Source: Azolla caroliniana (lineage: Eukaryota > Plantae > Polypodiophyta). Taken from it: a stretch of 64,000 nt of DNA. The position numbers were made by a program, and so were the translations under genes. Below are positions 7,289-62,884 of the stretch, one piece after another (positions within the stretch are counted from its first letter, which is position 1; the number at the start of each line of letters is the position of its first letter). A model generated the notes under the pieces. The model had not been told where the DNA came from and did no database searches. It was given only the letters and a program-made list of their open reading frames with translations. The stretch spans positions 14,570,001-14,634,000 of the forward strand of contig JBHGNT010000004.1 in NCBI GenBank assembly GCA_043228905.1, given 5' to 3'.

Positions 7289-7303
7289 GACATATTCCCA
7301 ACA

Positions 7304-8605: not shown

Positions 8606-9010
8606 AAATTCATGGAGCACACTGGCAATCTCTCGAAAGAGTGGATCTTCGCCGCCCTGTGTCTGGTAGGCCTTGCTGGCTAGAGAGTATTCCCCAAAAT
8701 ATTTTCGGAGTTGCTCCGGGGTAGGGTTGTCGATAGTGAAGATGCCCCCTTCCGGAAGGCCAATCAAAGCATGGATGGCCTCCTCCGTGATCAGTTCCGT
8801 GTCGATCTCCTTTACTATCTTCTCCGCCTCTCGGTGCGGTGGAGCCTCCATGATTGTGAGGAAACCTTCTAACCCGTGTTGCCTTAGCCACTTCTTGGCT
8901 GCTTCAGAGAGTGCTTGGCAGTCCATGGCTTCTTCGAGGTCGGTGAGCGCTGGTGAGGGGTGTGTTTGACGAGGCTCTGTGTGCGTGGGCTCGCGTCTAC
9001 TGATCTTCAA
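8600..9010 (-). CDS. Extra ORF downstream of G2 pol, truncated; weak resemblance to plant mobile domain / Athila-type accessory ORFs
   Basis: 136-aa ORF in the same sense as pol, with the motif LITEEAIHALIGLPEGG. Ends at the junction with the LINE. Confidence 0.5.
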   Translation of the reverse strand: MKISRREPTHTEPRQTHPSPALTDLEEAMDCQALSEAAKKWLRQHGLEGFLTIMEAPPHREAEKIVKEIDTELITEEAIHALIGLPEGGIFTIDNPTPEQLRKYFGEYSLASKAYQTQGGEDPLFREIASVLHEFR

Positions 9011-9310
9011 TCACCTGTGCTCGTTTGTGCTCCTTTGTTCGCGAAATGTGAAGGTTTCCACGCGGTGGGAGTTTTCTTGCTGCATGTTGCCGCCTTTTTT
9101 TCTGACTCGCGCCTATGCACGTCGTGTACTAAAATAGAATGACGTGCCATGTGGCGGCGGTTTAATATCCCATTAATAGGCCACTACGTACCTTTTCAAA
9201 GTGCCTATTCACTCCTTGTTCATGAATGTGTCGGTTCACCCCTCGCCCTTGCATGATTTACTTTGATTTGATTTGATTTTTTTTTTTTTTTAAAGATAAA
9301 AATGGTTTGG

Positions 9311-13891: not shown

Positions 13892-13901
13892 AACTCCCCC
13901 T

Positions 13902-17984: not shown

Positions 17985-18004
17985 CAGTCGCTCTGATACC
18001 AGTT

Positions 18005-18622
18005 TGATAGGGATAGACCCTTCTATTCACCTTCTCTACTCGGCCACAACCGAGTAAGCGCGAATCGATGGAGCAGAAAATAGGAACCACACGGAGAAAC
18101 AAAACGCGAGTACACAGAGATTAACGTGGAAAACCCTATACGGGAAAAACCACGGGAGTGCGAGACTCCAAACCAAAATATGCACAGAGAAATATATACA
18201 ATGGCGAGCTGCAAGGCAACGACCTTGAGCTCGCTTTCTTCACCACAGGCGGCGGTATTACACAGAGGCGTCTACCTCTTCCTCTCTCGCGCTCTCTCTC
18301 TCTCTCTCTCTCTCTCACGGCTGCTCTCTCTTCACTCTTCTAAAGTGGAAAAACAGAAAAATGAGAAGCAACAGTAAAACTGTTTGCCCTAAGTCATATT
18401 TATACTTATATGACTTTGGGCTATTTACAACTGTGGCCTCAGGAGCCCATAGCGAACATATTCACGGATATGTCCCTGCATCCGGATCGCTCTCCGGGTA
18501 CATTCTTCATCCGGTACCGAAACCGGGGTCTTCGTCATCCGGATCCGAAACCGAAACCGGGCTTGTCGGCATCCATCTCAGATATCCGACCATCCCATCC
18601 GAAAGGGACCGAAATCCCAACA
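18005..18622 (-). repeat. C2 5' LTR
   Basis: Adjacent to the iMet PBS, copy of 13274-13891. Confidence 0.96.
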
Positions 18623-20460: not shown

Positions 20461-20510
20461 TTCCCGCCGCTATTCGCTGCGATTGTGCAGGAATCGTGGT
20501 TGCCAAAAAC

Positions 20511-20943
20511 TGTGTTAATCCTTAGGGCTAGACAATGGCCTAACACAGGGTGTCTACGGAAGACACTTCACCAAAGGGGTGTTATGGCAAGATAACTTAA
20601 GACAAAACGATTAATCAGACTTAATTGGCTACTTAGCAATATGACATTAACTTAATACACGCTTAAGATATAACAATTAATACAGAACGATAATGAATAC
20701 GTGAAGATAAAACAAGAAGCTTATATTAATTCTCCGTTAAAGTTTTACATTGTAACCGGGCCTTTATATAGGTCATCGGTGCTGCGTACAAAACGGTGCC
20801 AACCGGCACCTGTTCGGAACCGGTCCGGATCCAGATTGGCATACCGATTCCGGTCCGTCTGTTCACTACTTAATTATAGTCTATTCCGAGTAACCATTCC
20901 CTTTCACATTTTGGTCTTTAACTCTTTTTCCGGCCAGGTAACA
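20511..20943 (-). repeat. G2 5' LTR (unpaired in this window)
   Basis: On - it starts TGTTACCTGG and ends ...TAACACA, is followed by the PBS, and contains TATA-like CCTATATAAAG. Confidence 0.78.
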
Positions 20944-22511
20944 CCAGGTATGATAGTTCTAAACTCACAGAACTATGCAGATTGGAAGATAAAGATGGAA
21001 GACCTTCTCATCGTGAAAGACCTGTATGAGCTAGTCGATAGAGCAGATATACCCAGGGGGGTATTGCAGTCGGATTGGAAACTTCTAAATAGAAAGGCAG
21101 TGGCCACCATCAGACAATGTGTCGACGTAAGTGTCCTTCAACATGTGGCGAACGATACAAATGCCCACGAGATGTGGTAGAAGTTGTCGGGTCTGTATGA
21201 GAGGAAGAATGCACTCAATAAAACCTCGCTAATGAGAAAAATTGTAAGGCTGAAATACACAGACGATGAGAGCATCATTGAACACATCAGCACGTTCATG
21301 GGGTATGTAAATCAACTTGTTGCGACCAAGGTTCCCTTGGATGATGCAATGCAGGCCATCCAGCTGATGTGCACACTGCCGGACAACTGGGAGAACCTAG
21401 TGGTTACTCTCAACACCTCCTGTCAAGACGAGAACTTGTCTTTACAGACGGTGAAGAAGAGGATCCTAAATGAGGAGGCCAGGAGGAAGGACAAAGGAGT
21501 CCTGTCCCAGTCGGAGTCGAATGTAACACAACATTCGGATAGAGGAAGGAACCGACAAAGAAGTCCACCAAGGTGAAAAAAGTCCCAACCCAGATCGAAG
21601 TCCAGAGGTAAGCTAGTGTGCTTTTACTATGGTAAACCTGGACACTTCCAAAAGGACTACCGACACATGAGAAAAGACAAGGGTGTCGGAAACAATGTCG
21701 AACCCAGGAAGATTCCTAATGAGAAGAACACTTCTACCATTGCTACGAGCAATTAAGAACTGTTGTTCATCTGTGAACAGAAAAGTGCAAATCTTACAAG
21801 TGAAGAATGCACTTGGGTGATCAATTCCGGGGCATCGTTCCACATAACTCCGTCGAGAGAGTATTTCTCGACTTACATAGCCAGAGATCACAGTTATGTG
21901 AAAATGGGTGATAGTGGAGAGTGCAAGATAGCCAGAGTCAGAAGTGTTCGCTTGACGACGTCGACATAGTGTCGACTGACTCTGAAGGATGTTTGACATG
22001 TCCCCGACATCAGATTGAATCTGATATCGACTAGATGGCTAGATGACGAAGGCTATAGTGGTAGCTTTTGGAATGGCAAGTGGAAGTTCTGCCGAGGAAA
22101 TCTTATAGTGGCCAGAGCACAGAAAGAAGACACATTATATATGATGCATGCACGACTGTGCAAATCGGAAGTAAATGTGGCAACCGGCTCGGCAAGGCAA
22201 ATATGGAATAAGAGGCTAGGCCACATGAGTGAGAAGGGAATGCACCTACTAGCAGACAAGAAACTTCTACCATAAGTCAAGGGAGTGCACCTAGAAAAGT
22301 GCGTCGACTGCTTAGTCGGAAAGCAGAATAGAGCAACATTCCACGCAAGACCACCGAGGAGAAGAGAAGTGCCACTAGAACTAGTACACACAGACTTGTG
22401 CTATGTGGATACTCCATCGTATCGAGGTGGAGAGTACTTTGTGACGTTCATTGATGACTATAGTCGGAAGACATGGGCCTTCTTATTGAAGTCGACGGAT
22501 CAAGTATTGTC
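20944..22511 (+). pseudogene. gag-pol: Copia C1 internal region, part 1 (gag-PR-start of IN)
   Basis: MIVLNSQNYADWKIKMEDLL..., WVINSGASFH, LELVHTD...FIDDYSRK...DQVLS. Cut by G3 and resumes at 60412. Confidence 0.9.
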
Positions 22512-22949
22512 TGTTGTTCAGTCGATAATAACTATTGCCGACACAGTATAGGTCGAACGTTGCTCACCAAACGTTCTATCAATGAATTGTGGTTTAGACG
22601 AATAGATGCTAAAATGGTTGTAAACTTATCGATGTTCAGCAGGCATCGAGATCGCTATTTACGTAAAAAGTTATGGCAGAAAGGAAATAGATTGACAGAG
22701 CGTTTCGTACACAGAGATTTCCTAAACTAACTTTATATTACTAAATAAAACGATGTTTCTTTACATTGCCTTTGGTTCCTTTTATAGGCAACCGGAAGGA
22801 CTTCCTCATCGATCCTCTAACTAACTATAATTCCGGTTTTTGATTTACTACGGCAAATGTTGACTCATCGATCCTCTATACCAATCCGACTCCACCTCTG
22901 AACCTTCTACATTTCCAACTCTAACACTTCTCCACTTCTCCGGGTAACA
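22512..22949 (-). repeat. G3 3' LTR
   Basis: Aligns with 59939-60411 apart from a ~35-bp indel; TATA-like CCTATAAAAG on -. Confidence 0.92.
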
Positions 22950-22992
22950 CTTGGCACGCCCGTGGGCCAAGGCCTTGCCCGGTGAACCCACG
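22950..22992 (-). other. tRNA 3'-end-like sequence (inverted PBS) at the position normally held by the PPT of G3
   Basis: On - it reads CGTGGGTTCA-CCGGGCAAGGCCTTGG-CCCACGGGCGTGCCA-AG|TG(LTR), with 12 nt perfectly complementary to the G3 PBS region. Confidence 0.8.
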
Positions 22993-23239
22993 CTACCCCT
23001 TCTACTCCTGTTCTTCTGACGGAAGGTCCTCATCTAACTCGTCCTCCGCGTCATCCTATAGAATATTGAACAATGAAGGTTCCGGTTGGTGCATGTCTTA
23101 TTCGTCTTCGTCTTCGGTTTTTGTAACCATGTTGTCGATGGTCTTGGTTTCTTTGTTTCCGGTGCTCCAAGTCCAACAGTCTAGTTTCGCCTTTCAGATT
23201 CAAGGTTATCTAGCTGGATAGCTGTGTCATCATTGACGA

Positions 23240-24673
23240 GAGTGAGTTGATGCTCATCATTGAGGAGAGTGAGTTGAACCTTGCCAGTGACGAGACAACG
23301 TGGGTTGTCGATTCCGGAGCGTCGTTCCACCTGACCCCGGACCAGAAATGCTTCTCATCCTACACAATCGGTGAGCACGGTTGTGTCTGGATAGGGAATG
23401 AAGGTACATGCCGAATTGTCGGCATAGGAGACATGTGGCTAACAACACCAACCGGATGCAAGCTGCTGCTGAAGGATGTTCGACACGTTCCGGAGGTTCA
23501 ACTGAACCTGATATGAGCCGACCGGCTAGATGATGAAGGCTACATGGGTAGCATCCGGAACAGTGTCATGAAATTTAGCAAAGGGAGCCTGATAGTGGCT
23601 TGGGCCCGGAAAGTCAACACTCTGTACCTAATGAATGCCCGGTTATGCCGGGAAGTAGTGAACATGGCATCTGACACTGCCGGTGAGCTGTGGCACAAGA
23701 GACTGTGTCACATGAGCGAGATGGGCATGAAGAGGCTTGCCGATGACAACCTCATTCTGGTGAAAGAAGTGCATCTTGAGAAGTGCACCGACTGCCTGGT
23801 CGGTAAGCAAAACCAAACCTCCTTCCGCTCAAGGCCACTGATGAGACGTAATGCACCACTAGACCTGGTGCATACCAATGTGTGTCAAGTGGACACGAAG
23901 TCACATGTGGGATCGCAGTACTTCGTGACATTCATAGATGACCACATCCGGAAGCTGTGGGCTCGCCGTTGAAGACGAAGGATCAAGTGTTATCCGTCTT
24001 CAAGGAGCTGCACGCGAGAGTGGAAAGAGAAACCGGCCGGAAGCTGAAGGCGGTTTGAGCAGATAACGGAGGAGAATACCGGGGGCAGTTCGAGGAGTAC
24101 TGCCGCTCAAAGGGAATCCGGCTTGAATTTACCGTGCCAAAGACGCCGGAACTAAACGGGCTGGATGAGAGGATGAATCAAACCATAATGGAGAGGGTCC
24201 AGAGTATGCTAGCACATGCTAAGCTACCCAAGACGTTTTGGGATGAGGCACTGTCGACAACGACGTATGTGATAAACAAATCACCCTCAGTGCCCTTGGA
24301 CGGAGACACGCAAACAAAGAGTATGGACCGGTAAGGAAATGTCTTACTGGCATCTGAAGGTGTTCGGGTGTCTTGCTTACGTGCATGTTGCAAAGGACCG
24401 GAGAGAAAAGTTGGATCCAAAGTCCCGGCCTTGCATATTCCTCGGATACGACAATGATGAGTTCGGCTACTGAGCATGGGATACGGTCGACAAGAAGGTT
24501 TTCGGAGTCGAGATATTATCTTCATGGAGGTCAAGACCCTTGCCGACTAGGAGTCGGAGAAGAAGATAATGAACTCTGAGTCAACCGGTAAGGATTGGTT
24601 CGATGAGATACGGACCTACCCAGCTAAGAGCTGGTTGACACTCGAAGAACTGGACGGTTACGGTGAGGATACC
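23240..24673 (+). pseudogene. pol: Copia C3 internal fragment (PR-IN), C2/C6 family, no LTRs
   Basis: ELMLIIEESELNLASDETTWVVDSGASFH, LWHKRLCH, PKTPELNG; closely matches 41887-43430 on the opposite strand. Confidence 0.88.
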
Positions 24674-25219: not shown

Positions 25220-28200
25220 ATGAATACTCAAATGGGGAGCGGTCTCCCTACCGAGAAGTTGGATCGAAACAACTTCGCATCTTGGGAGTACAAGATGCAC
25301 CAATACCTTGTCGGACAAAGCTATTGGAGCTACATCAAAGGAGTGCATGAAGACCGACCCGCCGAAGCGGCTCCCGAATACGCGACATGGGAGCAAGCCG
25401 CAAGCCGCGTGATGTATTGTTTGGCGACATGTGTTCACAATCACATGCTCAGCTACATTCGCGAAGCCAAGACGCCGAAGGAGGCATGGGAAAATCTACG
25501 AAAGATTTTCGCGGCGAACACAACCGCAAGAAGGCTTCAACTCGCCAAGAGTTGAACAACATTCAACAAAGGGAAATATCCATTACGACATACACCTCGA
25601 AGACCAAGGAGCTTTGCAATTCGCTCGGCTCAATAAGCGTAAATATCAATGATGATGAGATGGTTAAAATATGCCTCGGCGGCCTCGCACCACGGTTGGG
25701 CGCGATGCGAACCGCCGTTCTAGCATGGGAGAAATCTCCCTCCTTCTTCGAGCTCCAATCAATGTTATTGGTTGAAGAAAACCACATGCGTACAAGGAGC
25801 AATGAGTCGGAAGGCCACATGCTCTACACGCACTCGAACGGAGGAAGAGGACGCGGACGGTCAAGAGGCCGATTCGGCCAAGGACAAGGCGGACGAGGTC
25901 CGACCTACGGTAACAACTCCCAATTTCGGCCACAAAACGGAAGCTGACGAGGAACCTTTGCAAGAAGGGGGAGCTTCCACTCCGGCCCAAGCCATCAAAA
26001 CGCAACGAAATGCAGATATTACGGAAAGCTCGGCCACCACGAAGAAGAGTGCCGAAAGAAGATGCGTGAATCGGCTTCCACAAGCCGACAACTCACGAAT
26101 TACGCGCACAATTCCGACTATGAAGAGTATAACGGAATGTATGGGCAGAACTTTGACTACGAAGATCGTGGTGGAATGTATGGACACAACTCTGCCCGTG
26201 GCGGAATGTACGGGCACAACTCCGACTACGAAGATCGTAGCGGAATGTATGCACACAACTACGACCGTGGTGGAGTGTTCATGATGAAACATAGAGCAAA
26301 CTCTAAGTTGGTCGCTACCTCAACTAGTGCCTTCGGTCCGGAAGACGTATGGTTTGTCGATTCCGGTGCCTCGAACCATATGACATCGCATTAAGAATGA
26401 TTCCGAGAACTTCGAGAGCTGGACCGACCCGGCTATGTCGAAAACGGAGACGACACTACGCACCCGATTTGGCACATCGGCAATGTTCCGTTCGGAAAAG
26501 AAAGTAAGAAAAATTACATTAAAAATGTCTTGCATGTACCGACTATTACGAAGAATTTTGGTCTCCGTCGGCCAAATTGTAGAGCAAGGGATGCAAGTTC
26601 GATTTACTCAAGGCGGTTGCTTCATCGAAAAAGAAGGCCGACTCATTGCACATGGACGAAGAGAGGGCCAAATGTTCATTCTCGACTCACATAAGATGAA
26701 ATCGGCCATGTTCGCAAAGAGCACGAAAGCGACTCCGACATAGAGCTATGGCACAAGTGAATCGGCCACATCAATCTCAACAAACTCAAATCAAAGAAAT
26801 CGAAAGGAGTCGTCATCGGACTCCCGACATTCAAAGAAGAAGATTGAAGGTGTATGTGAAGCATGCCAATTCGGCAAGCAACACCGACACCCATTCCCGA
26901 ATGAGCGGAACGTGAGCAAATTTCTACTCGACGTAGTCCATTCCAACGTATGGGGACCGGCGCAAACGGCTACATTCGGCGGATGCCGATATTACGTGCT
27001 CTTCATCGACGACTTCTCCAGGCATGCTTGGATCTACCGGATGCGACAAAAGAGCAAAGTGTTTGGACACTTCCAAATATTCAAGAATGAAGTCGAGAAA
27101 GCCACGGGCCCACATGTACGTTGTTTTCGATCCGATGGCGGCAAGGAGTACTTCTCGGACGATTTCATGGCGTATCTCCGGAAGGAAGGAATTCGGCGAG
27201 AATTCACTTGCCGACACACTCCGCACCAAAACTGGGTAGCCGAACGCAAAAATTGGCACATCCTCGAAGTAGCACGGGATATGAAGAACGAGAAGCATAT
27301 GCCCAAGTCATATTGGGCCGAAGATGCAAATATGGCTGTCTACCTAATGAACCAGTGCACAACATCCGGTGTGCACGAGGTCACTCCGCACGAAAAATAC
27401 TTCGGAAAGAACCAGACTTATCGCACACCCGGATATTCGGCGCGATAGCATACGTGCATATCCCCGACGAGAAGCGTCAAAAGCTTGACCCAAAGTCGGA
27501 GAAATGTATCCTCGTAGGATACTCACTTGAGCAAAAGGGGTACAAGTGCTACAACCCCTTAACTCGAAAATCTCGAGTAAGACGAGACGTCGTTTTTGAC
27601 GAATTCGCATCCTTGTACGCAGTAGAGACAACTTCGACTCCGACTCCGCTCGACCTAGAACCCGCTTAACAAGAGATAGAGGATAAAGATCATTTGATGC
27701 GCATGTTCAAAGAAAGTCCGATCACGACCCGACTGATTGGACCACACGAGCCTCCGAGCGATCAACGGACATCACGGCCTAGCCCGAAGATGGACAAAGG
27801 CAAGGCGAAAATGGCGGAACACAAAGACGATCGTTTCGACAACGATGAATCGACTCACTCACTCGACAGTGAGTTCGACAGCTTTGACATACCAATCGGA
27901 GCTAAGAAAGCCCTCATCTGTGCAAATGAAAAGCTCTGCCGCTCCACCCGTGAAAAGAATCCGGTTAGCCGATTCGGCTACAATGACTACATGGCATATC
28001 ACTATGCCTTTATGGTGCAGGTGGCGACAGTACGCGAGCAGGAAACATTCTCCGAAGCAGCCAAGGATCCGCGATGGATCAAAGCCATGAACGAGGAGAT
28101 GCAGGCACTACGGAAGAACGAGACGTGGGATCTCGTTCCCACCTCACCACACAAAAAGGCGATCGGATGCAGATGGATCTACAAGGTGAAGTATAACGTC

Positions 28201-29613: not shown

Positions 29614-29833
29614 CGCGTGGATTACGCAACCACACAACGAAGCCGCGAAGAGCCGATCTACCGCGCAAAGCTGCGAAGAAAGACGCAAGCCCAAGGACAA
29701 ACTTCGCAACTACGCACAACGCAAGCTGGAGCACGGATTCCACAACTCCGCATAAATGCGAGTCGACGCTGTCGTGAAGAATGTGCTTCACGATATAAAA
29801 ATGAGCTAAAATGTTGTATTTAATAATATTTGA

Positions 29834-30026
29834 GAGACTTGAACCCACATCCTTATATACGATGTACAATGTACATACCACTAGGCTAGGCTATTTATTT
29901 GTAAAAGTGTGTAATAAATGTGCTTCATGATATAAGAATGAAGCTATATATTGTATTAAGTAAAATTGAGGGACTTGAACCCTCAACCTTGTATACCAAG
30001 CACCAACCATACACCACTAAGCTAGG
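29834..30026 (-). promoter_or_regulatory. Two antisense tRNA-like A-box/B-box modules in the G4 LTR (repeated in the 3' LTR)
   Basis: On -: TAGCCTAGTGGTA...GGGTTCAAGTC (29834-29888) and TAGCTTAGTGGTG...GAGGG-TTCAAGT-CCCTC (29968-30026, perfect T arm). Confidence 0.65.
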
Positions 30027-30275
30027 TTAGTTATTTTAGAATGCATTTTCATCATTATAATTATCTCATATCTATTTTCATACATAGCCATCATTCATCA
30101 CATGCAATGCATGTGCGCCAAATGGCGATCATGCATTACATGTAACTCATGCATTGCATGCATGCCATGCTCCCATACATTACCATATGCATGGCAACAC
30201 TTATATAAAGAGGGGCAAGGAAAACAAGAAAGGAATCAAGAGAGAGTGAGAAAATAATACAATCAATTAAAGAAG

Positions 30276-30340
30276 ACTAGCTCATTGGGTGGAGAACCTC
30301 TCGTTTTGAAGTTGAGGTCGTGGGTTCAAATCAAGGGTCG
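30276..30340 (+). promoter_or_regulatory. Sense tRNA-like A-box/B-box module in the G4 LTR
   Basis: TAGCTCATTGG...GAGGTCGTGGGTTCAAATC. Confidence 0.6.
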
Positions 30341-40385: not shown

Positions 40386-40792
40386 ACAAATGCCTTTGTT
40401 TGTCTTTGCTTGTGTTCCAAAGCTGACATGGCCTATATTCTTTCTTCCTCTAACAGTAATAAGGCTTCTTTCCGAATTTGTTCCGACTGCAGTTCATTTA
40501 ATTCTTCAGTTGCTTGTATTCGGAGTGCCGGAATATGAAATTCTACTGGCATTACGGCTGCTAATCCGAAATCCATTCGCAAAGGAGTTGATTTAATAGA
40601 TGTTTTATAAGACGTCTAATATGCCCATAAAGCACTCTGAAGCTTTTGATCCCAATTTGTACGATTTTCATTGACTATCTTTTTGAGTATTGTCTGCAGT
40701 GTTTTATTTGTCGATTCTGCTAATCCATTTGCTTGTGGATAGTAAGGAGTGCTCTTTTTATGAACCACTACGTAATATGTGGATAGCTCATT
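40383..40792 (-). pseudogene. pol: G3 integrase, downstream part
   Basis: STPYYPQANGLAESTNKTLQ...ALWAY, continuing the integrase at 44504-44778 across C6. Confidence 0.85.
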
Positions 40793-40796
40793 TGAC

Positions 40797-41080
40797 GGGA
40801 ACTCAACGCTCCTTATGCACGACGCTCGGCCACAACCGAGCTTAGAATCATACACAGAAAACAGGAAACGGGAAAAAAACACGACACAAAGGAGAGAGAA
40901 AAGGTACACAGGATGTTTACGTGGAAAACCCAAACTAAGGGAACTCAACGCTCCTTATGCACGACGCTCGGCCACAACCGAGCTTAGAATCATACACAGA
41001 AAACAGGAAACGGGAAAAAAACACGACACAAAGGAGAGAGAAAAGGTACACAGGATGTTTACGTGGAAAACCCAAACTAA
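40797..41080. repeat. ~142-bp tandem duplication in the C6 3' LTR
   Basis: GGGAACTCAACGCTCC...CCCAAACTAA is present twice, but only once in the other LTR. Confidence 0.9.
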
Positions 41081-41560: not shown

Positions 41561-44503
41561 CTGTTCTTCTCTCTTCCCATCCGGAGGGACCTGTCTCCCA
41601 ACAAACTCCCCCTTCACTCAGGCATGGGGTGTCTTACCAGTCCGATTCTCTTCCGGCATGCCTCTAGCTTGTCGGGTATCAGCGCTTTGGTCTGCATATC
41701 TTCATCAGCGCGAACTCCTGGTCATCTACTCTTTCCCGGATCCATGGCACTTAACCATTTCAAGCTGTGGGTGTCTTCCTTCGCTTCTTCAAAGCTTTTT
41801 GGCTCCCCCTCATCGGTCAGCAGAACATGCTCTACATCCGGGAATCTCCGGGGGGCCCTTCTCTCTCTGAGAGGATATCTCCGACTCTAGGCTTCAGTGA
41901 CCGGCTCATCCATCTGCTCTTCATCCGAATCCGATTTGGGGTCTTGGCCGGTTCCGGTTTCAGCTTCCTCTACTTCTTCTTCAGCCCGTTCGGTATCCTC
42001 ACCATAACCGTCTAGTCCCTCGAGTCCTAACCGGTCTCTTGCCGGTTGGGTCGGCTCATCGTAGAGTCGATCCTTACCGTTCGACTCGGAGTTCATTATC
42101 TTCTTCTCCGACTCCCAGTCGGCGAGCGTCTTGTCCTCCATGAAGATAATATCTCGGCTCTGGAATACCTTCTTGTCGACCAGGTCCCACACTCGGTAGC
42201 CGAACTCATCGTCACCGTAACCGAGGAATATGCATGGCCCGGTCTTTGGATCTAACTTTCCTCTCTGGTCCTTAGCTATATGCACGTACGCGAGACACCC
42301 GAACACCTTCAGATGCCGGTAGGATACTTCCTTACCGGTCCACACTCTCTGTGGCGTGTCTCCGTCCAAGGGTACTGAGGGTGATCTATTTATCACATAT
42401 GTCGCTGTCGACAGTGCCTCAACCCAAAACTTCTTGGGTAGTCTTGCATACGCTAGCATACTCCGGACCCTCTCCATTATGGTCTGGTTCATCCTCTCGG
42501 CCAGTCCGTTTAGTGCCGGCGTCTTTGGCACAGTAAATTCGAGCCGGATTCCCTTCGAGCGGCAGTACTCCTCGAACTGCCCCCGGTATTCTCCTCCGTT
42601 ATCTGCTCGAACCACCTTTAGCTTCCGGCCGGTTTCTCATTCCACTCTCGCGTGGAGCTCTTTGAAGACGGATAGCACCTGATCCTTCGTCTTCAACGGT
42701 GTGGCCCACAGCTTCCGGCTGTGGTCATCTATGAACGTCACGAAGAACTGCGCTCCGGCATGTGACTTTGTGTCTACTTGACACACATCCGTATGCACCA
42801 ACTCCAATGGTGCATTACGTCTCATCGGTGGCCTTGGTTGGAAGGAGGTCCGGTTTTGCTTACCGTCCAGACAATCAGTGCACTTCTCCATGTGCACGTT
42901 CTTCACTGGAATGAGGTTGTCATCTGCACGCCTCTTCATCCCCTTCTCGCTCATGTGACACAGCCTCTTGTGCCACCGCTCACCGGTAGTGTCGGATGCC
43001 ACGTTCACTTCTTCCGGACATAATCGGGCATTCATCAGGTACAATGTGTGGACCTTCCGGGCCCGAGCCACAATCAGACTCCCTTTGCTGAACTTCATGA
43101 CACCGTTCCGGATGCTACCCGTGTAGCCTTCATCATCTAGCCGACCGGCTGATATCAGGTTCAGACGAACCTCCGGAACGTGTCGGACATCCTTCAGCAG
43201 CAACTTGCATCCGGTTGGTGTTGTCAGCCACACATCTCCTATGCCGACAATTCGGCATGTACCTTCATTCCCCATCCGGACACAGCCGTGATCACCGGCT
43301 GCGTAGAATGAGAAGCATTTTCGGTCTGGGGTAAGGTGGAACGACGCTCCGGAGTCGACCACCCAGGTCATCTCGTCGCCGGCAAGGTTTATCTCACTCT
43401 CCTCGGTGATGAGCATCAACTCTTCTTCACTTGCCGCGATTGTCGTCGTTCCCTTTCGGTCCGGCCCCCTCCAGTCTTTACCGTTCTGGTCCGGGGTCCG
43501 CTTCGAATCGGTACTGTCGGTTTCCTTGTCTTTTCGGAAATGCCGACAGTTCTTTTGGAAGTGACCCGGCTTGCCCCAATAGAAGCAAGTAGGCCTCCCC
43601 CTTGACTTTGACCGTGTCCCCGACTTCTCCCGGTTCTGGGGACTCCGGTTTTTGTGTCTTCCGCGTTCCGATTCGGTAAGGAGCGCTTTGGATTCGGAGC
43701 TCGTATCTTTATCTTTCCGACGCGCCTCCTCATCCAGCAAGCTCAACTTCACTCTTGCTAGGGATAACCGTTTTCCTTCCGGCCCGGCGTTGCCCAAAGT
43801 GACAACCAACGTCTCCCAGCTATCCGGGAGGGAACTGAGTAGGAGTAGCGCTAGTACCTAATCGGCGAGAGGTACTTCCAATGAAGTTGCCTGGTGGATC
43901 AGCCCCTGGAAAGCATTCATTTGCTCCGCCATGCTGGAGCCATCTTGGTACCGGAGTCTTACTAGCTTCCGGAATTCCGAAACCTGATTAACAGCATTTT
44001 TGTTTTGAAACATTATGCCGATCTTCTCCCAGAGCTCATGAGCCTTGCTCTCTTCATTGAAGTTGTTGTACAAGCTCATGTCGATGAAGCACCGTATATA
44101 CGCCGTTCTCTTCATGTGCATCACCTCCCATATCGTGGCATCGATTTTGTCCGGTCTCTTGTCCCCAAACTGAACCGGCAACCAAAGATCTTTTACCACG
44201 AGCATATCCCTCATCTTCGACTTCCACACTGAATAGTTGGAGCCGGTGAGCTTGAACATGCCGCCCAACGATTCGTCCATTTTCTGTGTCGTTTCGCTCT
44301 GATACCACTTGACGGGAACTCAACGCTCCTTATGCACGACGCTCGGCCACAACCGAGCTTAGAATCAGACACAGAAAATAGGAAACGGGAAAAAGCCACG
44401 ACACAAAGGAGAGAAAAGGTACACAGGATGTTTACGTGGAAAACCCAAACTAAGGTAAAAACCACAGCAACCCACAGGCTGCGAAGGGACTTGTCTCCCA
44501 ACA

Positions 44504-47298
44504 TCATTTACAATTTTATTAATAAACTGTGTACCTTGATCACTTACTAATTCTATCAGACACCCAAATCGACACCATATATTTTCGTACAAAACTTTTG
44601 TTGTTGATGCTGTCGTATTGTCCCAGAGAGGTTTAGCTTCTACCCACTTTGTACAGTAATCTGTGGCGACTATAATGTAACGATTACCTGTGCGTATGGC
44701 TGCTGGTTTAAATGGACCGACAAAATCTAATCCCCATTTTTGAAATGGCTCCAAAGGCAAAACGGGTTGGAAAGGCATTCTTTCCTTTTATGTGGGTTGC
44801 CCCAGTCTTTGACATAAATCACATTTTCGACAATAGTCCACTGCATCGTTCATTACTGTCGGCCACCATAAGCCACTGTTTCATATTTTTCAGGCTGTAG
44901 TTTCTCCGACATAATGACCACCTGCAATACCACAATGAGATTCTTGCAGAATTATCAATCTCTCAATTTGTTGTATTGTCCTTCTCCAAATTCCGTTTGC
45001 CCCTTTATGATAGAGAGTATCGTTCAGAAAACAAAAATTCCAACTTCGAACGGCTAACCTTTTCCTTTCATCCGCCGATAGATGCTCGGGTAGTAGCCCT
45101 GTTGTAAGAAAGATTGTCATCTCAGAGATCCAAGCATCCTTGCTTTCCTCATTTATTTCTTGTACCCGTACTACTTCCACTCGAAAGAGTTGTCCATCCG
45201 GAAAATCATCTGGCACACCTATGTCTTCTTCTCCTAACTCTAGTCGGCTAAGATAATCAGCAATCACATGTTGTAAAATGTCAAACTCAAATTCTTGCAG
45301 TAGTAATGTCCATCGTGCTAGCTTACCAGTTAATTCTTGTTTAGAGACCAAATAGAGAAGAGCAGAATGATCGACATGGAATGTAAATTTCTTACCCAAA
45401 AGGTAGTGGCGAAATTTATTGATACTATAAATCATTCCTAACGCTTCCCTCTCGGTTGTTGAATAATTTCTTTCCGCTATCGAGAGTTTCCGACTAGCGT
45501 AATACACTGGTCTATACCAGTTTGGTTCAGATAACTGCATAAGTGCACTACCGATTGCTATATCAGATGCATCAACGAACACATGGAAGGGTTTATTCCA
45601 GTTAGGCGGTTGAACCACCAGAACATTAGATAGCATTTTCTTGAGACACTCATACGGGTCTTGTTCCACACCTGTCCATTGAAAAGGAACTTTATGCACC
45701 GCTGTGTGTAGAGGAATGGCAACATCTGCCAGATATCTAATCATCCTGCTATGCCATGTAATCTGCCCCAAGAACCGACTAAGGCCCTTAGCGTTTGTAG
45801 GTGATGGTGCTTCTAATATGGTCCTGACCTTGTCTAGGTCAACTACAATTCCTTCTTGGCCGACAATATGGCATAATAGTGCCCCACTAGTAACTCCAAA
45901 CGCGCATTTTTCCGGATTCAAGCTGAGCCGACCTTCCGACATTGCTCCAAACATAGTCGTAAATGTTCGAAATGTTCCGCTTTCCGGCTATACACGGCGA
46001 AATCATTCAGGAAAACTTGCATAAATGCGGGAATGTATTCCGCAAAGATTTCCTGTATAACCCTTTGAAATGTGGGCGGAGCTGTTTTTAATCCGAACAT
46101 AATTACTACTACCACAAAGACTCCCCATTCAGTAATGAAGGCTATCTTTTCTTGATCCTTCGGATGCATCCTTACCTGATTATATCCACTAAATCCATCC
46201 AGGAAACTATACATTTCATGACCAGTGACTGCATCCAATATCCCATCCATAAACGGTAATGGAAATGCGTCTGTTACTGTTGCTACATTTAGTTTCTGAT
46301 AGTCTACGCATACTTGAAATTTTCCATTCTTTTTCGAAACAACTACAATTGGACTTAGCCATGTAGCTTTTTTAACCGGTCGAATAAACCCTACCTTCAA
46401 AAGTTTATCTATTTCCTCTTTAACTTTAATTGCATAATTAGGATTTAAACGATACCTGCGTTGTTGAACTGGTTTCACATTTTTATGCAAGTTAATTTGG
46501 TGTTGGCAGAAAGCCGGATCTAGCCCTTTCATGTCTTCAAAAGACCAAGCAAAAACATCTTTATATTGCTTTAGTAACCCAAGTAACCTTTGTTTATCCG
46601 CCACTCTCATATCTTTATTTAGCCACCAACATTGTTTCTGGTTCAAACCCCTTATCATCTTCTGCCAAATTTACTTCCTCCAATGCCGAAGCCTGAACCC
46701 GTTGAGATACCTTCATTTCTCTTTTGGTAGCTTCATGCTGCATTCGGATTTCTTTCATTGTTTGGTCATCTAATGGTAATTCCTCTTGTGAATCCATGTA
46801 CGGTGTCAGGGTTTGTAATCTGTCTACTTCGAACAAAGGGATAATTTTTGGGTTATCATTAAAATAATGATTCTCTTCGACCTCATCTAGTCCTTCCATC
46901 ATATTTACGGCCTCCGTATGAATTGGCAAACATTGTTTGCTTGTCGTAATCTTATTCTGAGTAGTCTTGCCTTTCCGGAATGTTAATAAATTCTTATTCC
47001 AATTTTGCTTAATATTAGCAGTTTTTAACCATGGTCGACCTAAGAGCAAAGGATATGCTCCAAGAGTTTCCAAATGAAGCACCACTGCTGATATTTGAAA
47101 AGTGTGACCTCCTAATACGACATCCAACTGCCGGAGTAACCCGATTGGTCGTACCGTACTAGTATCAGCCATCCTTAGCCAAAATGGACATGCTTCCCAT
47201 TTGGTAATGCCAAGCCTATCACAAGTATTTCTATTAATTACATTCACACCTGAGCCGCCATCAACAATAACACCTTCTATTTCTTGCCCATGGATTAT
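44504..47298 (-). pseudogene. pol: G3 PR-RT-RH-IN
   Basis: VDGGSG, FLDGFSGYNQ, VFVDASD...YYASRKLS, FQKWGLDFVGP; colinear with G2 pol. Confidence 0.9.
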
Positions 47299-50113
47299 TG
47301 TTCAGAGACAAGCTCAACATCGACTGGATCGGCTGAAGAAGCCGAGGACCGGATCGGTTGGGACCGATCGGTTAGGCCGAGTGCGTAAACCGGTACGCAG
47401 ACCGGTGCGTAGGTAGGGCCGGATCGGTGCGGAAACAAGGAGGCCGTTAAGAAAGATATTCCGTGAGGAATATATTTGGGAGTTAGTGTAGGAGCTCTCA
47501 ATGAGCATTGAAGTACTGTCAGTACTTCGGTCAGTCCTTCTAGGACTTGTATAAAAGTGTTCATTGAACACACATATGTATAGAGTGTGGTGAATAGAGA
47601 TTGTTTTTTGTTGAATATAGTTCTTGTGTTCTCTCTCTCTCACTGTCTCTGTCTCTCCCGAGTATACTGCGTAAGCTCAAGCTCTCCATTAAACCTGAGT
47701 GTTCTTCCTTCTGTTCGGTCTTCATACTTGCTTCCGCACGCTACTTTCTACATGGTATCAGAGCACGAGGGTTGAGAACCTCTCTACAGCCGACACAGCT
47801 TGACGAAGAAGAACAAGAAGAACGATGGATAGAGGCATGGCGAGCTCGCTTCCAACAAAGAAGCTCGACAGAACCAACTACGCATCTTGGTCCTACAAGA
47901 TGCACTAGTACCTGCTCGGGCACGGCTACTGGAGTTATGTCGAAGGAGCTAATGACGCGGCACCCAAATCGACACACAGAGACTTCCCGTTGTGGGAGCA
48001 ATCGGCGAGCAGGGTATTATACTGCTTCGCGTCGTGTGTGGGACAACAGCTATTGAGCTATGTTCGGGATGCAAAGACGCCGAAGGGTGCGTGGGAAAAT
48101 TTGAAGAAGATTTTCGCCGCGAGCACCACAGCCATGGAGGTTCAGCTCCGATAGGAGTTGAGCAACCTACGACAACGCGACTTGTCGGTGGTGGACTATA
48201 CCTCGAAGACCAAGGATATCTGCGACTCCCTCGCCTCCATAGAGGTGAACATCGAGGAGAGTGAGATGGTTCAGATCTGTCTCAGAGGTTTGGCGTCGAT
48301 GTCCGGAGCGTTCCGAACGGCTGTGTGTACCCGGGAGAATACGCCGTCCTTTTTCGACTTACAGTCAATGCTCCTGGTAGAGGAGAACCATGCGGGTGCG
48401 TCTACAAGAACGCACACCGACAACAGAATGTTGTACACGGAGGGAGATAGGCCCCGTGGACATGGAGGACGAGGCGAGTCGGCGCGCAATGGAGGCGGCC
48501 GACGAGATCAAGGAAGAAGGCAACGAGGTGATGCCGACAGCAACTCCGGACCCTCCGGAAACAGGGGGAGTCGAAGCAATGAGACCGGCAAGGGAAGGCC
48601 ATCGCGGAGTGTTGGTACTGTGGCAAGAAAGGCCACAGGGAAACTGAGTGCTGGAAGAAGCGTGCCGAGTCGGAGAGAACCGGTTCCGGAAACGGCTCCG
48701 GACATACCGACAAGGGAAATCGGCAGCGATCACACTACGCCAAAGACTCCGGGAGAGCCGGAGAAGGGTCTGCCTTCGTGACGAGACACGAAGCAAACTC
48801 AATGAAACGAACCACCCCAAGATCGGACGAGGTGTGGTACGTAGACTCCGGCGCGTCAAACCACATGACAAGCCATAAGGAGTGGTTCTCGTACCTTGAA
48901 AAACCGATACAACCTAGAGTAGTCGCAACTGGAGACGACACTCCGCATCCGATCGCGAATGTCGGAGAAATTCCCCTTAGCCATGTCGGGCAAAAAGGGA
49001 AACTCATGAACGTGCTGCACGTTCCGACAATCACGAAGAACTTGGTCTCGGTCGGACAGATCGTCGACCAAGGGATGGAGGTTCAGTTTACACACCTCGG
49101 GTGCTTCATTGAGGAAGAAGACCGTGTGATTGCGCAAGGGCGCAGAGATGGGAGGATGTTCATCCTCGACTCCACTGACGGTGGCACCACAATGTTCGCA
49201 AAGGGACAAAAAGCCGAGTCGGACATCGACTTGTGGCACAAGCGGATAGGCCACGTTGTCGTGCCTTTCGGCTCCGGATCGTTTGCGTGAGTCGGGTGGG
49301 AACCACCGGGGTTTTGGACTAGGAGGAGGAAGAATTTGAGGCTAATCTAGTTATGAATATGAATAGATTATAAGAAAGAGATATAGAAACTTGTGAATCC
49401 CACAAGTATAATTGTTTTAGTTTATCTAAATCGTAGTAATAAATTGAAATAATTTAGAATAGATTAGAGTAGATTGAGAAAAGAGATCAAACCTTGTGAA
49501 TCCCACAAGTATTACATTAATCAATATTTATGTAAGAATATGAATTTAGATTGAAAGAGATAGATTATCTTAAACTTCGTGAATCCCACGAGTATATTTT
49601 ATTGATTGTTGGTGTTTTAGGAAATATATCCAATTTCCCAAATATTTTTCACACACAATTACATTGTGCTCCCCATCCTTATGTAGTGATGGGAGAGACT
49701 AAGCATAGCTACATGCTTTTTTTTCTAATATGTTCATGCACACTAAATGTGCATGTGATGCTTTTCTAATCCTTGCTTTTATTTGCTAAATATAGTGCTC
49801 ATGCACGCTAGATGTGCATGAGTCACTTTTTAGTCGCTTGCGTTTTTCTATAAAATATTCACGCACTCTAAAAATACATGATTTACCTTTTAATAAAGGT
49901 AGGCGCAAATAAAGCACTTATAGTTATTAAATCTATTTATAGAACACTAAATATAAGGTAGCATAATGGTAAAGTTGATATTTGGCTACGTGGAGGTACA
50001 AGGTTCGAATCTTGCCCTATGCACGTGATAAATATCTTGATATTCTTATTTTATTTATTGGTGATAAATATCTTGATATTCTTATTTTATTTATTTATAT
50101 GTAATTAAATCGG

Positions 50114-58190: not shown

Positions 58191-59900
58191 ATTATGACCT
58201 TAATAGAAGGATTTTTTTCATCCATAATTGAAGGATTATTACTTGGCTGATTACAGTGAACGTCTACCTGTTCCGTCCCTTTTTGGGCAATTAACGTCAC
58301 CACTTTCTCTGTAAACCTAGGAACTAATTTGAGTAATCCCGTCAAAGGTAATGATACTTGGCAATCCGCCAAAATTTTCCAAGTTTCTTCTTGTTCTGGT
58401 ACGGCCATAACTCTAAGCAATTCATTAGCTTGATTAATCTCATTATCTTGGAGCATTCGGGAGACATTGTTTTTATTCACTTCTTCTACCCATTCCTTGG
58501 CTGCATTCCGAACAGCTTCTTGAATTTCCCACTCTGATTGTTTACTTTTACATCTGGTGGTCACTTGTTGAATTTCCGGCATGACCATGTGCACAACCGG
58601 TGTTTTTCCTTTTCCTTTAGACGGACATTGATTTGCATAATGTCCCGCATGTCGGCAAATATAGCAGGTAGGAACAAAGTTCCACTCCCTTCGCCTTGCG
58701 CAAACTGATGATTTCCATCTTCATTAGAATCTGGGGTTTGTTGAAATTGTCGTGACACTTTTTGCTTATAGAATTTTTTATTCTTATAGCGATTTTGTTT
58801 AAACCGACCTCCATTGTGTAGTTGATAGTTGTTATCTTGTGCCACCGAAAAATCTTGATTTTGTTGATAATTATTTTGTCGAGCGGTTTCTTGGTACCCA
58901 TTATTGAGTACATGTCGGTTATTTTGGTACCCATATTCCGGAAAAAAATTCCGTACTGGTGTCGTTGTTTTGTTAAGAAGATTATATTCATATTGCTCGA
59001 CCGAATGAAGTTTAGAATGACATATTGTGCAATGTGTTCGTAAACTACATTCTATTGCCGAATGCCCAATATTCAAACAAGTCGTACATTGAACTGCTTG
59101 CTGAAACTGCAACTCCTCCCGAGTTGGCAACGTATGATGTAATGCCGACATATCCATACTCCTTACATTTTTCGGATTCCGGCCCATAGCGATTGCTTTA
59201 TCAATCACTTGCTCGATTATCTGATTCCGGAAATCGAACACTGCTAATGTTGTTCGTAATGGTTCATGAATTGCTTCAAGGAATACATCCTTCAATTCGT
59301 TGTCCGGAATAGGCCTGGAAATCTGGACTTGTAAATTCTGAAAACGAATGACAAATTGAGACACCGTTTCATGCGGCTCCTAATACAACGCATAAAATTG
59401 CGCAATCAAATCCTTTTGAGGAATCTGATGATGAAATAATTGCAGAAATTTGGTGTTTAATTGCTCAAATTTTTCGAATGCACGGGAGCCATTTTGCGCA
59501 AACTAATTAGCAAACTGACCATCTAATGACAAAACAAACTTAGCAATTTTAGATTTATCTTCGGCTACTGCTGATAGCCTCTGACCTCCATGGTTAATTT
59601 CCCATGTTGTCAAGAAATCCCTAACATGCGCTTCTGCATCAGCACCTTCCTGAAATTTAGAATACGGGTAAGGCATATTGTCTTCACTCCAGATATCGTA
59701 AAATGATATTTCCTCCTCCTGATTTTTGTCCAACTAACTATCAGTTAAATCGGGGAGCGCAGACCACCTTCTACTTGTTTCTGGTTGTAACTCTACAGCC
59801 GAATCTTTTTCTAGTGTCTTCGTAATCGAACGTGTACGAGGACGTTTAGAACTGACTAGTGTATCTGGACCAGACGACATCCATTCGACTTGTTCTCTGC
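58191..59900 (-). pseudogene. gag: G3 gag, fragmented
   Basis: DAEAHVRDFLTTWEINH, QFVIRFQNL, CTTCLNIGHSAIEC; homologous to G2 gag. Confidence 0.85.
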
Positions 59901-59938
59901 TAGCTGCAGATGTAACCGGGCGTGCCAAAATTATACTG

Positions 59939-60411
59939 TGTTGTTCGGTCGACAATAACTATTGCCGACACAGTATAGGTCGAACGTTGCTCACCGAACG
60001 TTCTACCAATGAATTGTGGTTTAGACGAATAGATACTAAAATGGTTGTAAACTTATCGATGCTCAGCAAGCATCAACATCACTATTTACGTAATAAGTTA
60101 TGACAGAAAGGAAATAGATTCACAGAGTGTTTCGTACACGGAGATTTACTAAACTAACTTTATATTACTAAATAAAACGATGTTTCTTTACACTACCTTC
60201 GGTTCCTTTTATAGGCAACTGGAAGGACTTCCTCATCAAGAAAACATATTGCCAAATAGGCAAGAACTACAAAATCTCTAACTAACTATAATTCTGGTTT
60301 TTTATTTACTGCGGAAAATGCTGACTCATTGATCCTCTATACCGATCCGACTCCGACTCCGAACCTTCTACATTTCCGACTTCGACACTTCTCCACTTGT
60401 CAGGGTAAACA
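59939..60411 (-). repeat. G3 5' LTR
   Basis: Direct repeat of 22512-22949, followed on - by the PBS. Confidence 0.92.
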
Positions 60412-62884
60412 CTGTCGTTTTTCAAGGAGTTCTAGGCAAGAGCCGAAAGAGAGTAAGATCGGAAGTTGAATGTTATTCGAACCGACAACGGTGGCGAGTA
60501 TAGAGGGCAATTCAAGGAATACTGCAAGTTCCAAGGTATTCGGATCGAATACATAGTGCCAAAGACCCCAGAGTTGAACGGGCTTGCAGAGAGGATGAAT
60601 CGAACAATGATGGAGAGGGTAAGGAGATTGCTCTCTCATGCGAAATTGCCGAAATCCTATTGGGCTGAGGCGATTTACACAATTGTTTATCTGATCAACA
60701 GGTTTCCCTTAGTACCATTAAAGGGTGATGTCCCACAAAGAGTGTGGATAGGGAAGGATGTCTCCTACCAACATCTGAGGGTGTTCGGATGTTTGGGGTG
60801 TATGCATGTACCGAAGGATTAGAGGTCAAAGCTCGACAGTAAGTCGAAGGCATGCATATTCATGGGATACTCGGAAGATGAGTTCGGCTATAGGCTATGG
60901 GATCTGGTCGACAAGAAGGTAGTGAGAAGTCGAGATGTAGTCTTTCTTGAAGATAAGACGATTGAATACTGGAAGCAACAGAAGTCGGATACGACTCCCC
61001 AGTCAACCTCGACTATCGTCGATCTAAGGTTAAGTGAACCAACAACGTCGGCTGTTCGGAGACGGCCAGTCGGCACAATCGAATCCGAGTTCGTTGACTC
61101 GCAGAGACCGACCGACTGTGAGTCAGAGTCGGCAGAGCTACTAAGGTCAATTGAAGAGTATGAGTTGGAGTCGTCCAACCTGAAGATGCCGATTGACGAG
61201 CACAATCCTGAGCGGAGAGAAGGGTTGGCAGAGACATCCGAAGATACCCACTTAGAGAAAGGAAAGCACTGACTACATATGCCAGTCAATTCATCCTCTT
61301 GACTGATGAAGGTGAACTAGAGTGTTATGAAGAAGGAAGCCATTGCCGACGAGCACAGAGAAAAATGGTTGAGCGTGATGCAAGATGAGATGGAATCCTT
61401 GCACGAGAATTACACTTACGACCTAGTAGAGCTGCCGAAAGGTAAGATTGCCCTCAAGAATAAATGGGTCTACAAGGTGAAGACTGGAGAAGCCGACAGT
61501 GAGCCCAGGTATAAAGCCCGCATTGTGGTGAAGGGTTTTCAACAGAAAAAGGGTGTCGATATCGACGAAATATTCGCACCAGTCGTGAAGGTGACATCCA
61601 TTCGAACTGTTCTGAGCATAGCGAGTAGTATGGATCTGGAGATCGAACAGTTGGATTTGCACTGGGAGCTAGAAGAAGAAATCTATATGCAGCAACCCGA
61701 AGGCTTTGAGGAGAAAGGGAAAGAGAATCTGGTGTGTCGAGTGAAGAGAAGCTTGTACGGTCTGAAACAAGCTCCACGCCAATGGTACAAGAAGTTCGAG
61801 TCCTTCATGATGGAACACCGGTTCTAGAAAACACAGGCCGATCACCGTGTGTTCGTCAAGAGGTACGAAGAAGGAGACTTCTTGATTCTCTTGTTATATG
61901 TTGATGACATGTTGATAGTCGGTTAAGATATAAGGAAGATTGGAAGCTTTAAGAAAGCTCTCGGCAAATCGTTTGCCATGAAAGACCTTGGACCGGCTAA
62001 ACAGATCTTGGGAATGCACATAGTTTGAGACAGAACTCAAAAGGTGCTATGGTTGTCACAATAGAAGTATGTGACAAAGATCCTAGAGAGATTTAACATG
62101 TCAGATGCAAAACCGGTCAGCTCAGTATTGCCGACAAACTATAGGTTAAATGCGAAGCAGTGCCCGAGAGAGGAGAAGGAGAAGGCTGAGATAAGGAAGG
62201 TACCATATGCCTCGGCTGTCAGCAGCCTAATGTATGTTATGGTCTATACAAGACCAGACACAACATTTGTTGTAGGAGTAGTAAGCCGATATATGAGTAA
62301 TCCAGGGAGAGAACACTGGGCAGCAGTGAAGTGGAAACTCAGGTACTTAAAGGGCACCTCGGGGCTGTGCCTAAGGTATGGTGTTGGAAAACCTGTGCTA
62401 GAAGGTTTTACCGATTCGGACATGTCGGGAGATGTTGACTCAAGCCGATCCGCGTCAGGGTACACGATGACCTATGCAGGGGGAGCAATGTCATGGCAGT
62501 CACGACTGTAGAAGTCTGTAGCCTTGTCGACTATAGAGGCAAAGTATATGGCAACAGTAGGGGCTGACAAAGAGCTAATTTGGATGAGAAATTTTCTCAA
62601 TGAATTAGGGATGAATTAGAAGGAGTTCTTGCTTCACTGTGATAGCCAAAGCGCCATACACCTTGCCAAGAATGCTGCATACCACTCCCGGACAAAGCAC
62701 ATACAGAGAAGGTATCATTGGTTGTAGGAGAGAGTTGAAGAAGGAGAGTTTTCTCTTGTGAAGATCCATACTGATGACAATGGATCCAACATCCTCACGA
62801 CGAACCTACCTATGGACAGATTTAGAGTCTATCGATAGAAGACAGGATTGACTGAATCCCTCCCATAGGAGTGAAGGGGGAGTT
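60412..62884 (+). pseudogene. pol: Copia C1 internal region, part 2 (IN-RT-RH) and PPT
   Basis: RTDNGGEYRGQF, YKARIVVKG, LYVDDML, FTDSDMSGD; many stops; PPT GAGTGAAGGGGGAG ending near 62882. Confidence 0.92.

Follow-up and report, generated by a model that had tools for sequence, protein, structure and literature searches.

How does an LTR retrotransposon start the plus strand of its DNA when the polypurine tract (PPT) that should prime it is missing? That a PPT primes the plus strand is taken to hold for LTR retrotransposons and retroviruses in general (PMC5371799, PMC13191261), and the accessible sections of the reviews, which name the PPT as the plus-strand primer, give exceptions for the minus strand only. 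The question is raised by G3, a Ty3/gypsy LTR retrotransposon on the minus strand of a 64,000-nucleotide stretch of Azolla caroliniana DNA (the window), a region of nested plant LTR retrotransposons. At the usual PPT position G3 carries a motif resembling the 3' half of a tRNA-Arg, from which an earlier note on this DNA had proposed a non-canonical replication scheme. We find that the motif is a conserved, structured PPT replacement in a known kind of element.

G3 has the domain order gag, protease, reverse transcriptase (RT), RNase H (RH) and integrase between two LTRs, with a target-site duplication (TSD) at its edges (Table 1). Gag, RT-RH and integrase all lie on the minus strand, in agreement with the orientation given in the earlier note; a plus-strand G3 with the motif as its true primer-binding site (PBS) was rejected because gag, pol and the extra open reading frame (ORF) are all on the minus strand. 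The TSD is 5 bp long (TTGTC/CTGTC), and once G3 and one of the 5-bp copies are excised, the host copia integrase reads in frame again. The duplication and the restored frame fix the ends of the element and, since both outer ends are exact, the tRNA-like motif sits outside the LTR. A longer LTR that would start at the purine run upstream and include the motif was rejected on the same grounds, and the 5' LTR lacks the motif. With 401 of 438 aligned LTR columns identical, the copy is old. It has also lost most of the integrase end and most of the 3' extra ORF (gap 40385 to 23215). What remains of the extra ORF was recognized by DNA alignment to an intact relative, L069 (score 80.5; maximum of 200 shuffles, 60.5), the only one of five relatives with which such an alignment succeeded, and went undetected by tblastn. 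An inverted copia fragment (37546-40385), 92% identical to 25499-29101 and lying beside a cut LTR, and a second copia fragment in opposite orientation (23244-24673) mark a local rearrangement that deleted part of G3.

Several other elements share the window. Two are Phygy-like (29770-37115, plus strand; 49257-54411, minus strand), with 4-bp NCGN target duplications, canonical PPTs and PBSs that we take to be of the tRNA-Trp type. The first has two long ORFs, and its LTRs agree at 98.9%; in the second the LTRs are identical, no RT match was obtained, and part of the interior is duplicated, giving another LTR-like end and PBS near 52082. In G2, an element of a sister family, an intact-looking copia element (13274-18623, minus strand) with a single frame of 1374 codons has identical LTRs, which indicates a very recent insertion into G2, and LINE-like RT sequence (7290-8605, minus strand; read by eye) interrupts the G2 extra ORF.

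Table 1 Coordinates of G3, its plus-strand start motif, the sister element G2 and the extra frame of relatives (positions in the window unless a locus is named)
Feature	Position	Strand	Remarks
tRNA-Arg 3'-half-like motif, whole, at usual PPT position	22952..22991	-	
T-stem 5' strand and T-loop start	22983..22991	-	GTGGG-TTCA here; TTCG in most contigs
Covarying hairpin at T-loop position	22967..22982	-	2-bp stem, bulged T, 4-bp stem, AAG loop
T-stem 3' strand, acceptor-like strand, CCA	22952..22966	-	one nucleotide shorter than the tRNA-Arg genes found
Spacer from CCA to LTR TG, 2 nt	22950..22951	-	2 nt in 6/6 complete relatives
G3 3' LTR	22512..22949	-	begins TG at 22949
G3 5' LTR	59939..60411	-	
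Target-site duplication, left copy	22507..22511	+	inside host copia integrase
Target-site duplication, right copy	60412..60416	+	4/5 identical to left copy
LTR-to-PBS spacer, 11 nt	59928..59938	-	predicted pairing with U5
G3 PBS, tRNA-Arg type, TGGCACGCCCGG	59916..59927	-	12-nt match to proxy tRNA L095, which is not the host's
G3 gag region	58191..59880	-	stops and frameshifts break the frame
G3 protease, RT, RNase H, integrase start	44500..47301	-	no extra archaeal-type RNase H match
G3 integrase core	40386..40800	-	severed at about 40385 by inverted copia fragment
Remnant of 3' extra ORF C-terminus (acidic tail)	22996..23215	-	source of upstream purine run; 22994-23215 in the alignment to L069
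G2 5' LTR, sister family	20513..20943	-	
G2 PBS	20496..20505	-	sequence type differs from that of G3
G2 start of 3' extra ORF	8606..9161	-	severed by LINE; G2 3' LTR absent from window
Extra frame in relatives	L069:1637-4375, L001:3319-6327, L062:1381-4890, L065:916-3723, L015:4694-7933, L019:6247-8997		

Read along the minus strand from 22991 to 22952, the motif is GTGGG-TTCA-CCGGGCAAGGCCTTGG-CCCAC-GGGCGTG-CCA, followed by AG and the LTR. The T-arm-like stem and the acceptor strand ending in CCA two nucleotides before the 3' LTR are there exactly as first described, and the reported absence of a purine run abutting the LTR is borne out, with 11 purines in the 20 nt before U3. G3 and six relatives have 9-11 purines in this interval, fewer than the 13-15 counted in six further LTR elements from the window, a control row for the host copia being left out, and none of the informative relatives (six of the six complete ones) has a PPT next to its 3' LTR. 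The purine run said to lie ~45 nt further upstream does exist; it is the coding end of the acidic ORF and is not shared by relatives. Among nine aligned motifs the consensus is a lower stem GTGGG/CCCAC, a bulge of 4-5 nt ending in CG (CA in G3) and an upper part composed of a 2-bp stem, a bulged T, a 4-bp stem and an AAG or AAA loop. The order CCA, 2 nt, TG holds in G3 and in all six complete relatives (7/7). Searching for the full cloverleaf with D-arm and anticodon arm, ARAGORN found no tRNA gene in the window or in the 23 of 80 relative loci scanned, and Rfam gave no tRNA match at the motif.

Relatives of G3 were fetched by the integrase C-terminal domain alone, the motif being unused, and among 492 pattern matches (346 confirmed) the best 80 were kept, all of them metagenome loci from assemblies with neighbouring accession numbers and hence a narrow sample of hosts. 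Ten of these best 80 reach at least 2,900 nt beyond the integrase match, the remaining 70 being too short or interrupted. Eight of the ten carry the motif: in six it is complete and followed by the LTR (L001, L007, L062, L065, L069 and L074), and in two the sequence ends inside it (L015 and L019). The other two (L046 and L049) switch to other sequence before the extra ORF ends. The eight carriers make up five families with 61-97% integrase identity, L001 and L007 being near-identical; L036 and L038 have related LTRs whose start is missing. When contigs from four runs, which cover three organism codes and three studies, were aligned to 22490-23230, the junction of LTR and motif was bridged in all four, and the bridging records are other copies, with 19-38 differing letters, in each of the runs. 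Summed contig depth in run X1, which is not a copy number, is 24,431 at 22940-22964 against 1,717 at 22915-22939 and 721 at 22990-23014, and depth peaks of similar size also lie near the TATA box. Over 303 kb, a covariance model, whose training sequences match by construction, gives a single motif match in each locus and no others. Viral contigs yielded no relatives by protein or by a two-type motif pattern, one pattern match there (L081) being rejected as chance since it lies inside a phage ORF and has no stem pairing, and prokaryote genomes gave 0 matches for the full motif.

One locus departs from this layout. At L048:1493-1550 (minus strand) the motif belongs to an element inserted in the opposite direction to the one with the integrase, and an LTR-like stretch follows it; no acidic ORF end lies ahead of the motif, and its spacer is 2 or 4 nt depending on the reading. 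The motif-bearing element may be non-autonomous and have retained the motif.

The fixed letters of the motif, searched as a pattern, match real tRNA genes. Sixteen of the 26 matches are tRNA genes and 15 of these are tRNA-Arg (13 TCG, 2 TCT), all prokaryotic or phage, so that the likeness to a tRNA-Arg 3' half claimed from the letters alone extends to the T-arm and acceptor strand of real genes from these sources. The plant host presumably has such a tRNA-Arg end, as the PBS implies. In L001, L048, L062, L065 and L074 the motif is a T-arm with 13 nt inserted after the T-loop A, and on either side of this insert the T-loop of the tRNA is continued letter for letter (A, 13-nt insert, GT); G3 and L069 differ from the tRNA at T-loop positions 58-60. 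Altogether, 8 of 203 tRNA-matching positions differ from the proxy tRNA-Arg (L095), and 27 of 144 insert positions differ from the column majority. The tail variants of L065/L074 and of L069 would form G-T wobbles against the tRNA. All 16 tRNA genes have one nucleotide more between CCCAC and the acceptor strand than the motif, and this nucleotide is absent from every family.

Nine of the 26 pattern matches (L085, L086, L087, L090, L091, L099, L101, L102 and L106; about 121-145) belong to a repeated short hairpin in Gammaproteobacteria MAGs and are not tRNA genes. This hairpin, which by its look we take to be a REP-type repeat, has T-arm-like letters in common with the motif and is likewise without the extra nucleotide.

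The two parts of the motif vary in different ways. In the insert hairpin, both partners have changed at four of six pairs (12 cells, a count that none of 500 shuffles reached; slid controls gave 0-2), whereas the lower stem GTGGG/CCCAC shows no compensatory change in the nine motifs; the three unpaired cells reflect an alignment shift in L001. As the nine are kin, drawn probably from a single set of hosts, and also served to derive the structure, these counts are not probabilities. Covariation is the structural evidence, since the single G3 motif folds no better than shuffles (z 0.42). The covarying pairs have a mean probability of 0.76 with DNA parameters against 0.41 with sense-RNA parameters, and under DNA parameters the two strands fold equally (0.75 versus 0.76), so that folding picks no strand. 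A G-T pair in G3 fits the sense RNA and becomes an A-C mismatch in minus-strand DNA. The 3' half of the proxy tRNA-Arg cofolds with the minus strand at seven of seven motifs, giving two blocks, a junction and a looped-out insert, and the whole proxy tRNA cofolds at -18 to -27 kcal/mol at the motifs versus -20.5 at the G3 PBS; these values speak to feasibility only, the proxy being a bacterial, unmodified tRNA treated with RNA-RNA parameters and its complementarity following by construction from sequence identity.

On these sequence data we lean towards reading the motif as a second, inverted and hairpin-split binding site for the host tRNA-Arg, which would prime the plus strand in place of a PPT. 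It is to a similar degree probable that G3 represents an Athila-like branch in non-seed plants that lacks a PPT and in which host tRNAs would start both DNA strands. Of the non-canonical replication first proposed, it is thus the non-canonical priming of the plus strand that fares best, as a lineage trait with no PPT and a match to tRNA-Arg, and the options of circularization and pairing with the element's own PBS that fall, on the evidence of the G2 family given below. Under host-tRNA priming, a tRNA would prime minus-strand DNA at the PBS in the ordinary way and, after strand transfer, RT would copy the motif and RNase H would clear the genomic RNA. The single-stranded minus DNA would then expose the complement of the acceptor strand and T-arm as two blocks, with the insert folding out as a small hairpin opposite the T-loop. 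Here tRNA-Arg could anneal, its ready-made CCA end starting the plus strand 2 nt before the LTR TG, and RNase H would finally remove the primer, leaving a 2-nt extension for integrase trimming. If this is true, G2-type families would use two different tRNAs per replication cycle.

Several features suit a host tRNA as the partner. Because the sense RNA is identical to the tRNA, the tRNA can pair with minus-strand DNA only, with its 3' end pointing toward U3 from the place of the PPT primer. With an unchanging outside partner one expects the tRNA-matching letters to stay fixed, the insert to covary freely and the tail to be independent of the PBS, as is seen here. A lower stem without covariation next to an insert with it is likewise expected if an unchanging outside RNA reads the stem. 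Against such a site, the missing nucleotide would force a bulge 11 nt from the primer end in the pairing with the tRNA, where a genuine site could be expected to agree with it, and a tRNA annealed to DNA is itself an RNase H substrate. The T-loop departures of G3 and L069, the A-C mismatch of G3 in minus-strand DNA and the mispairing change in the G2-type loose end (below) also weigh on this side.

In a second, more tentative reading the element would encode its own primer: its RNA would refold into a tRNA-like hairpin that escapes RNase H, is cut just after the CCA and primes the plus strand, held on the minus DNA by a 10-nt tail, RNase H already being an enzyme that recognizes tRNA ends. The geometry and the absence of a PPT fit this equally, the lower stem forms in the sense RNA with a probability of ~1.0 without flanks, and a PPT is by definition an element-encoded RNA primer in the accessible text of PMC5371799. 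Self-priming would make a second tRNA unnecessary, and it does better than the host tRNA on the missing nucleotide, which it tolerates, and on the G-U pair of G3, which suits RNA. It gives no account of the fixed letters: an element's own cDNA is always complementary to its RNA, and nothing obvious would then hold 24 letters constant across families whose LTRs do not align. Nor does it sit well with a lower stem that never covaries while the insert does, with covarying pairs that sense-RNA folding recovers poorly (0.04-0.67) or with a tail that did not follow the switch of PBS in the G2 family. We therefore regard self-priming as possible and put host-tRNA priming first.

It is unlikely, and clearly more so than self-priming, that the motif has some other job, such as packaging, RNA stability, pausing or the definition of the integrase end, with loose RNA remnants or the upstream purine stretch acting as primer and the end being trimmed later. 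Purine-rich 15-mers (12-14 of 15) do occur within 120 nt in six of seven elements, and a U5 spacer of 4 to 11 nt suggests that the lineage tolerates long end extensions. However, in most relatives these stretches are codons of the acidic tail that vary in both position and sequence, and they are absent from L062 (best 10/15, longest run 6). The constant 2 nt between CCA and TG in seven of seven elements has the register of a primer end.

The earlier note had laid its emphasis on complementarity between the tail of the motif and the element's own PBS. Such pairing could circularize the RNA by joining its 5' and 3' parts, or a cleaved tail could act as the element's own minus-strand primer. In G3 the complementarity is real, at 11 nt perfect and 12, the figure of the note, with one spacer base. 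The sequence TGGCACGCC occurs without mismatch at only two places in the 64 kb, tail and PBS (9 in total with one mismatch allowed, which is chance level), and a 10-nt match at a fixed place has p ~1e-6. Bridging of 5' and 3' parts through a bipartite PBS is known for Ty3 (accessible sections of PMC5371799 and PMC11381356). A test of these options comes from L001 and L007, which belong to the G2 family (88% identity in integrase, ~82% in the LTR, 89-90% in the leader). Their PBS is TGGCGACCAC, yet their tail is as in G3. The match between tail and PBS, 11 nt in G3 and L062, accordingly falls to 8 nt in L065, 7 in L069 and 4 in L001 and L007, without covariation. In the L001 and L007 contigs the LTR continues into PBS and gag like collapsed repeats, and the LTR-PBS junction of G2 in the window confirms the pairing of this LTR with this PBS; two contigs in run X2 leave the start of a G2 LTR into a G3-type tail, 2 nt from TG (one of four runs, among the matches listed). 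In the G2-type loose end, one change would mispair with the tRNA unless an isodecoder matches it.

The covariation of tail and PBS that had been predicted for G2-type copies is thus absent, and the weight placed on the element's own PBS finds no support. The note had counted a tail that does not track the PBS against its proposal as a whole; it brings down the circularization and own-PBS options and leaves the rest standing. With a match of only 4 nt in the G2 family, pairing with the PBS or circularization becomes very improbable. The Ty3 parallel does not help, as the 3' segment of Ty3 is complementary to the tRNA and the sense RNA here is identical to it, and the missing PPT would be left unexplained. 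A tail that stays constant while the PBS changes favours a fixed outside partner such as the host tRNA. As for a one-off rearrangement or an aberrant product of reverse transcription in the G3 copy, for which its age, internal rearrangement and deletion upstream of the motif would speak, the probability is negligible, given that the motif and its register recur in eight of ten relatives found without use of the motif and in contigs of other copies from four runs.

Beyond the motif, the relatives have further features in common. Between integrase and motif lies a sense frame of 913-1170 codons whose versions in different families are homologous (22-41%); it combines a conserved N-terminal domain with a coiled-coil-like segment and an acidic tail. 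It has no convincing Pfam family, and the protein atlas gave only a lead at 0.82 (below 0.9), to a cluster with PMD (PF10536) in 39% of its members. Families differ in the length of the LTR-to-PBS spacer, which spans 4 to 11 nt (L001, L008, L019, L062, L065 and L069; window 59928-59980 and 20506-20545), against 3-6 nt in the ATHILA elements of Brassicaceae (bioRxiv 10.64898/2026.03.20.713144, accessible part). In G3, L069, G2, L001 and L008 a long hairpin directly ahead of the PBS is predicted, formed by pairing of the spacer with U5. The 11 nt of G3, beyond the ATHILA range, raise the question of how integrase trims such an end.

The nearest named RT-RH relatives are from Riccia and Marchantia (~50%) and Adiantum (48%). 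In a quick RT-RH tree of 64 rows, built without a curated Athila reference, the group falls with liverwort, fern and unnamed sequences (SH-aLRT 91) and is sister to a clade of pine and angiosperm sequences, a seed-plant clade presumed to be Athila. Neither a chromodomain nor an archaeal-type RNase H had a Pfam match in the polyproteins of L019 and L015. The group works like an Athila-side element and is a candidate for membership in Athila.

If a natural, abundant lineage does use a tRNA-type primer for its plus strand, whether a host tRNA or a self-made mimic, then RT and RNase H can switch primer class. The motif would offer a testable substrate of 40 nt in which a marker of one nucleotide and one hairpin tells the two primers apart. 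Element finders that filter on a PPT would miss or mis-orient such elements, since both inner ends resemble a PBS. A literature search, with subscription papers mostly outside its coverage, found no description of tRNA-type plus-strand priming or of the letters of the motif.

The published comparisons that follow rest on the accessible sections of the sources cited. G3 and its relatives resemble Athila in having the Ty3/gypsy domain order, no chromodomain, no archaeal RNase H match and a 5-bp TSD (PMC6317226), and in their great length, the additional ORF downstream of pol and the long, AT-rich spacer separating LTR and PBS (PMC6317226; bioRxiv 10.64898/2026.03.20.713144). In Brassicaceae ATHILA, however, the junction of PPT and 3' LTR is conserved in 97% and the PBSs are of the Asp/Asn type (bioRxiv 10.64898/2026.03.20.713144), whereas the G3 group has Arg-type PBSs, no PPT and a split tRNA motif. 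A tRNA-Arg PBS is common in Tat/Ogre/Retand elements, which also have a 5-bp TSD; 92-100% of these have an archaeal-type RNase H (PMC6317226), and since none was detected in two long polyproteins of the G3 group, this affiliation is excluded. Phygy and Selgy are excluded by their 4-bp TSD, their tRNA-Trp or tRNA-Ala PBS and their lack of an extra ORF, set against a 5-bp TSD, an Arg-type PBS and an extra frame of 913-1170 aa in the G3 group. Cer7 of C. elegans encodes a tRNA-like sequence near its 3' end that matches its own PBS and serves minus-strand priming; by contrast, the tail in the G3 group does not track the PBS and occupies the PPT position.

Self-priming in Tf1, Tcn1 and TAR and priming by a half-tRNA in copia elements are likewise non-standard, but they alter the priming of the minus strand (PMC6317226, PMC5371799). 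With the canonical scheme of PBS and PPT in Ty3 and retroviruses, the G3 group has in common a tRNA-primed minus strand, TG...CA LTR ends and a primer position by U3 (PMC5371799, PMC13191261); its putative plus-strand primer site differs: it is structured and rich in GC, consists of pyrimidines to about one half and has the sequence of a tRNA 3' half. The bipartite PBS of Ty3 and Ty1 likewise binds a tRNA through acceptor stem and T-arm in two separate blocks (PMC5371799, PMC11381356). In Ty3 and Ty1 both blocks lie in the genomic RNA, serve the minus strand and coexist with a PPT, whereas in the G3 group the two blocks would be available on minus-strand DNA only, at the start of the plus strand.
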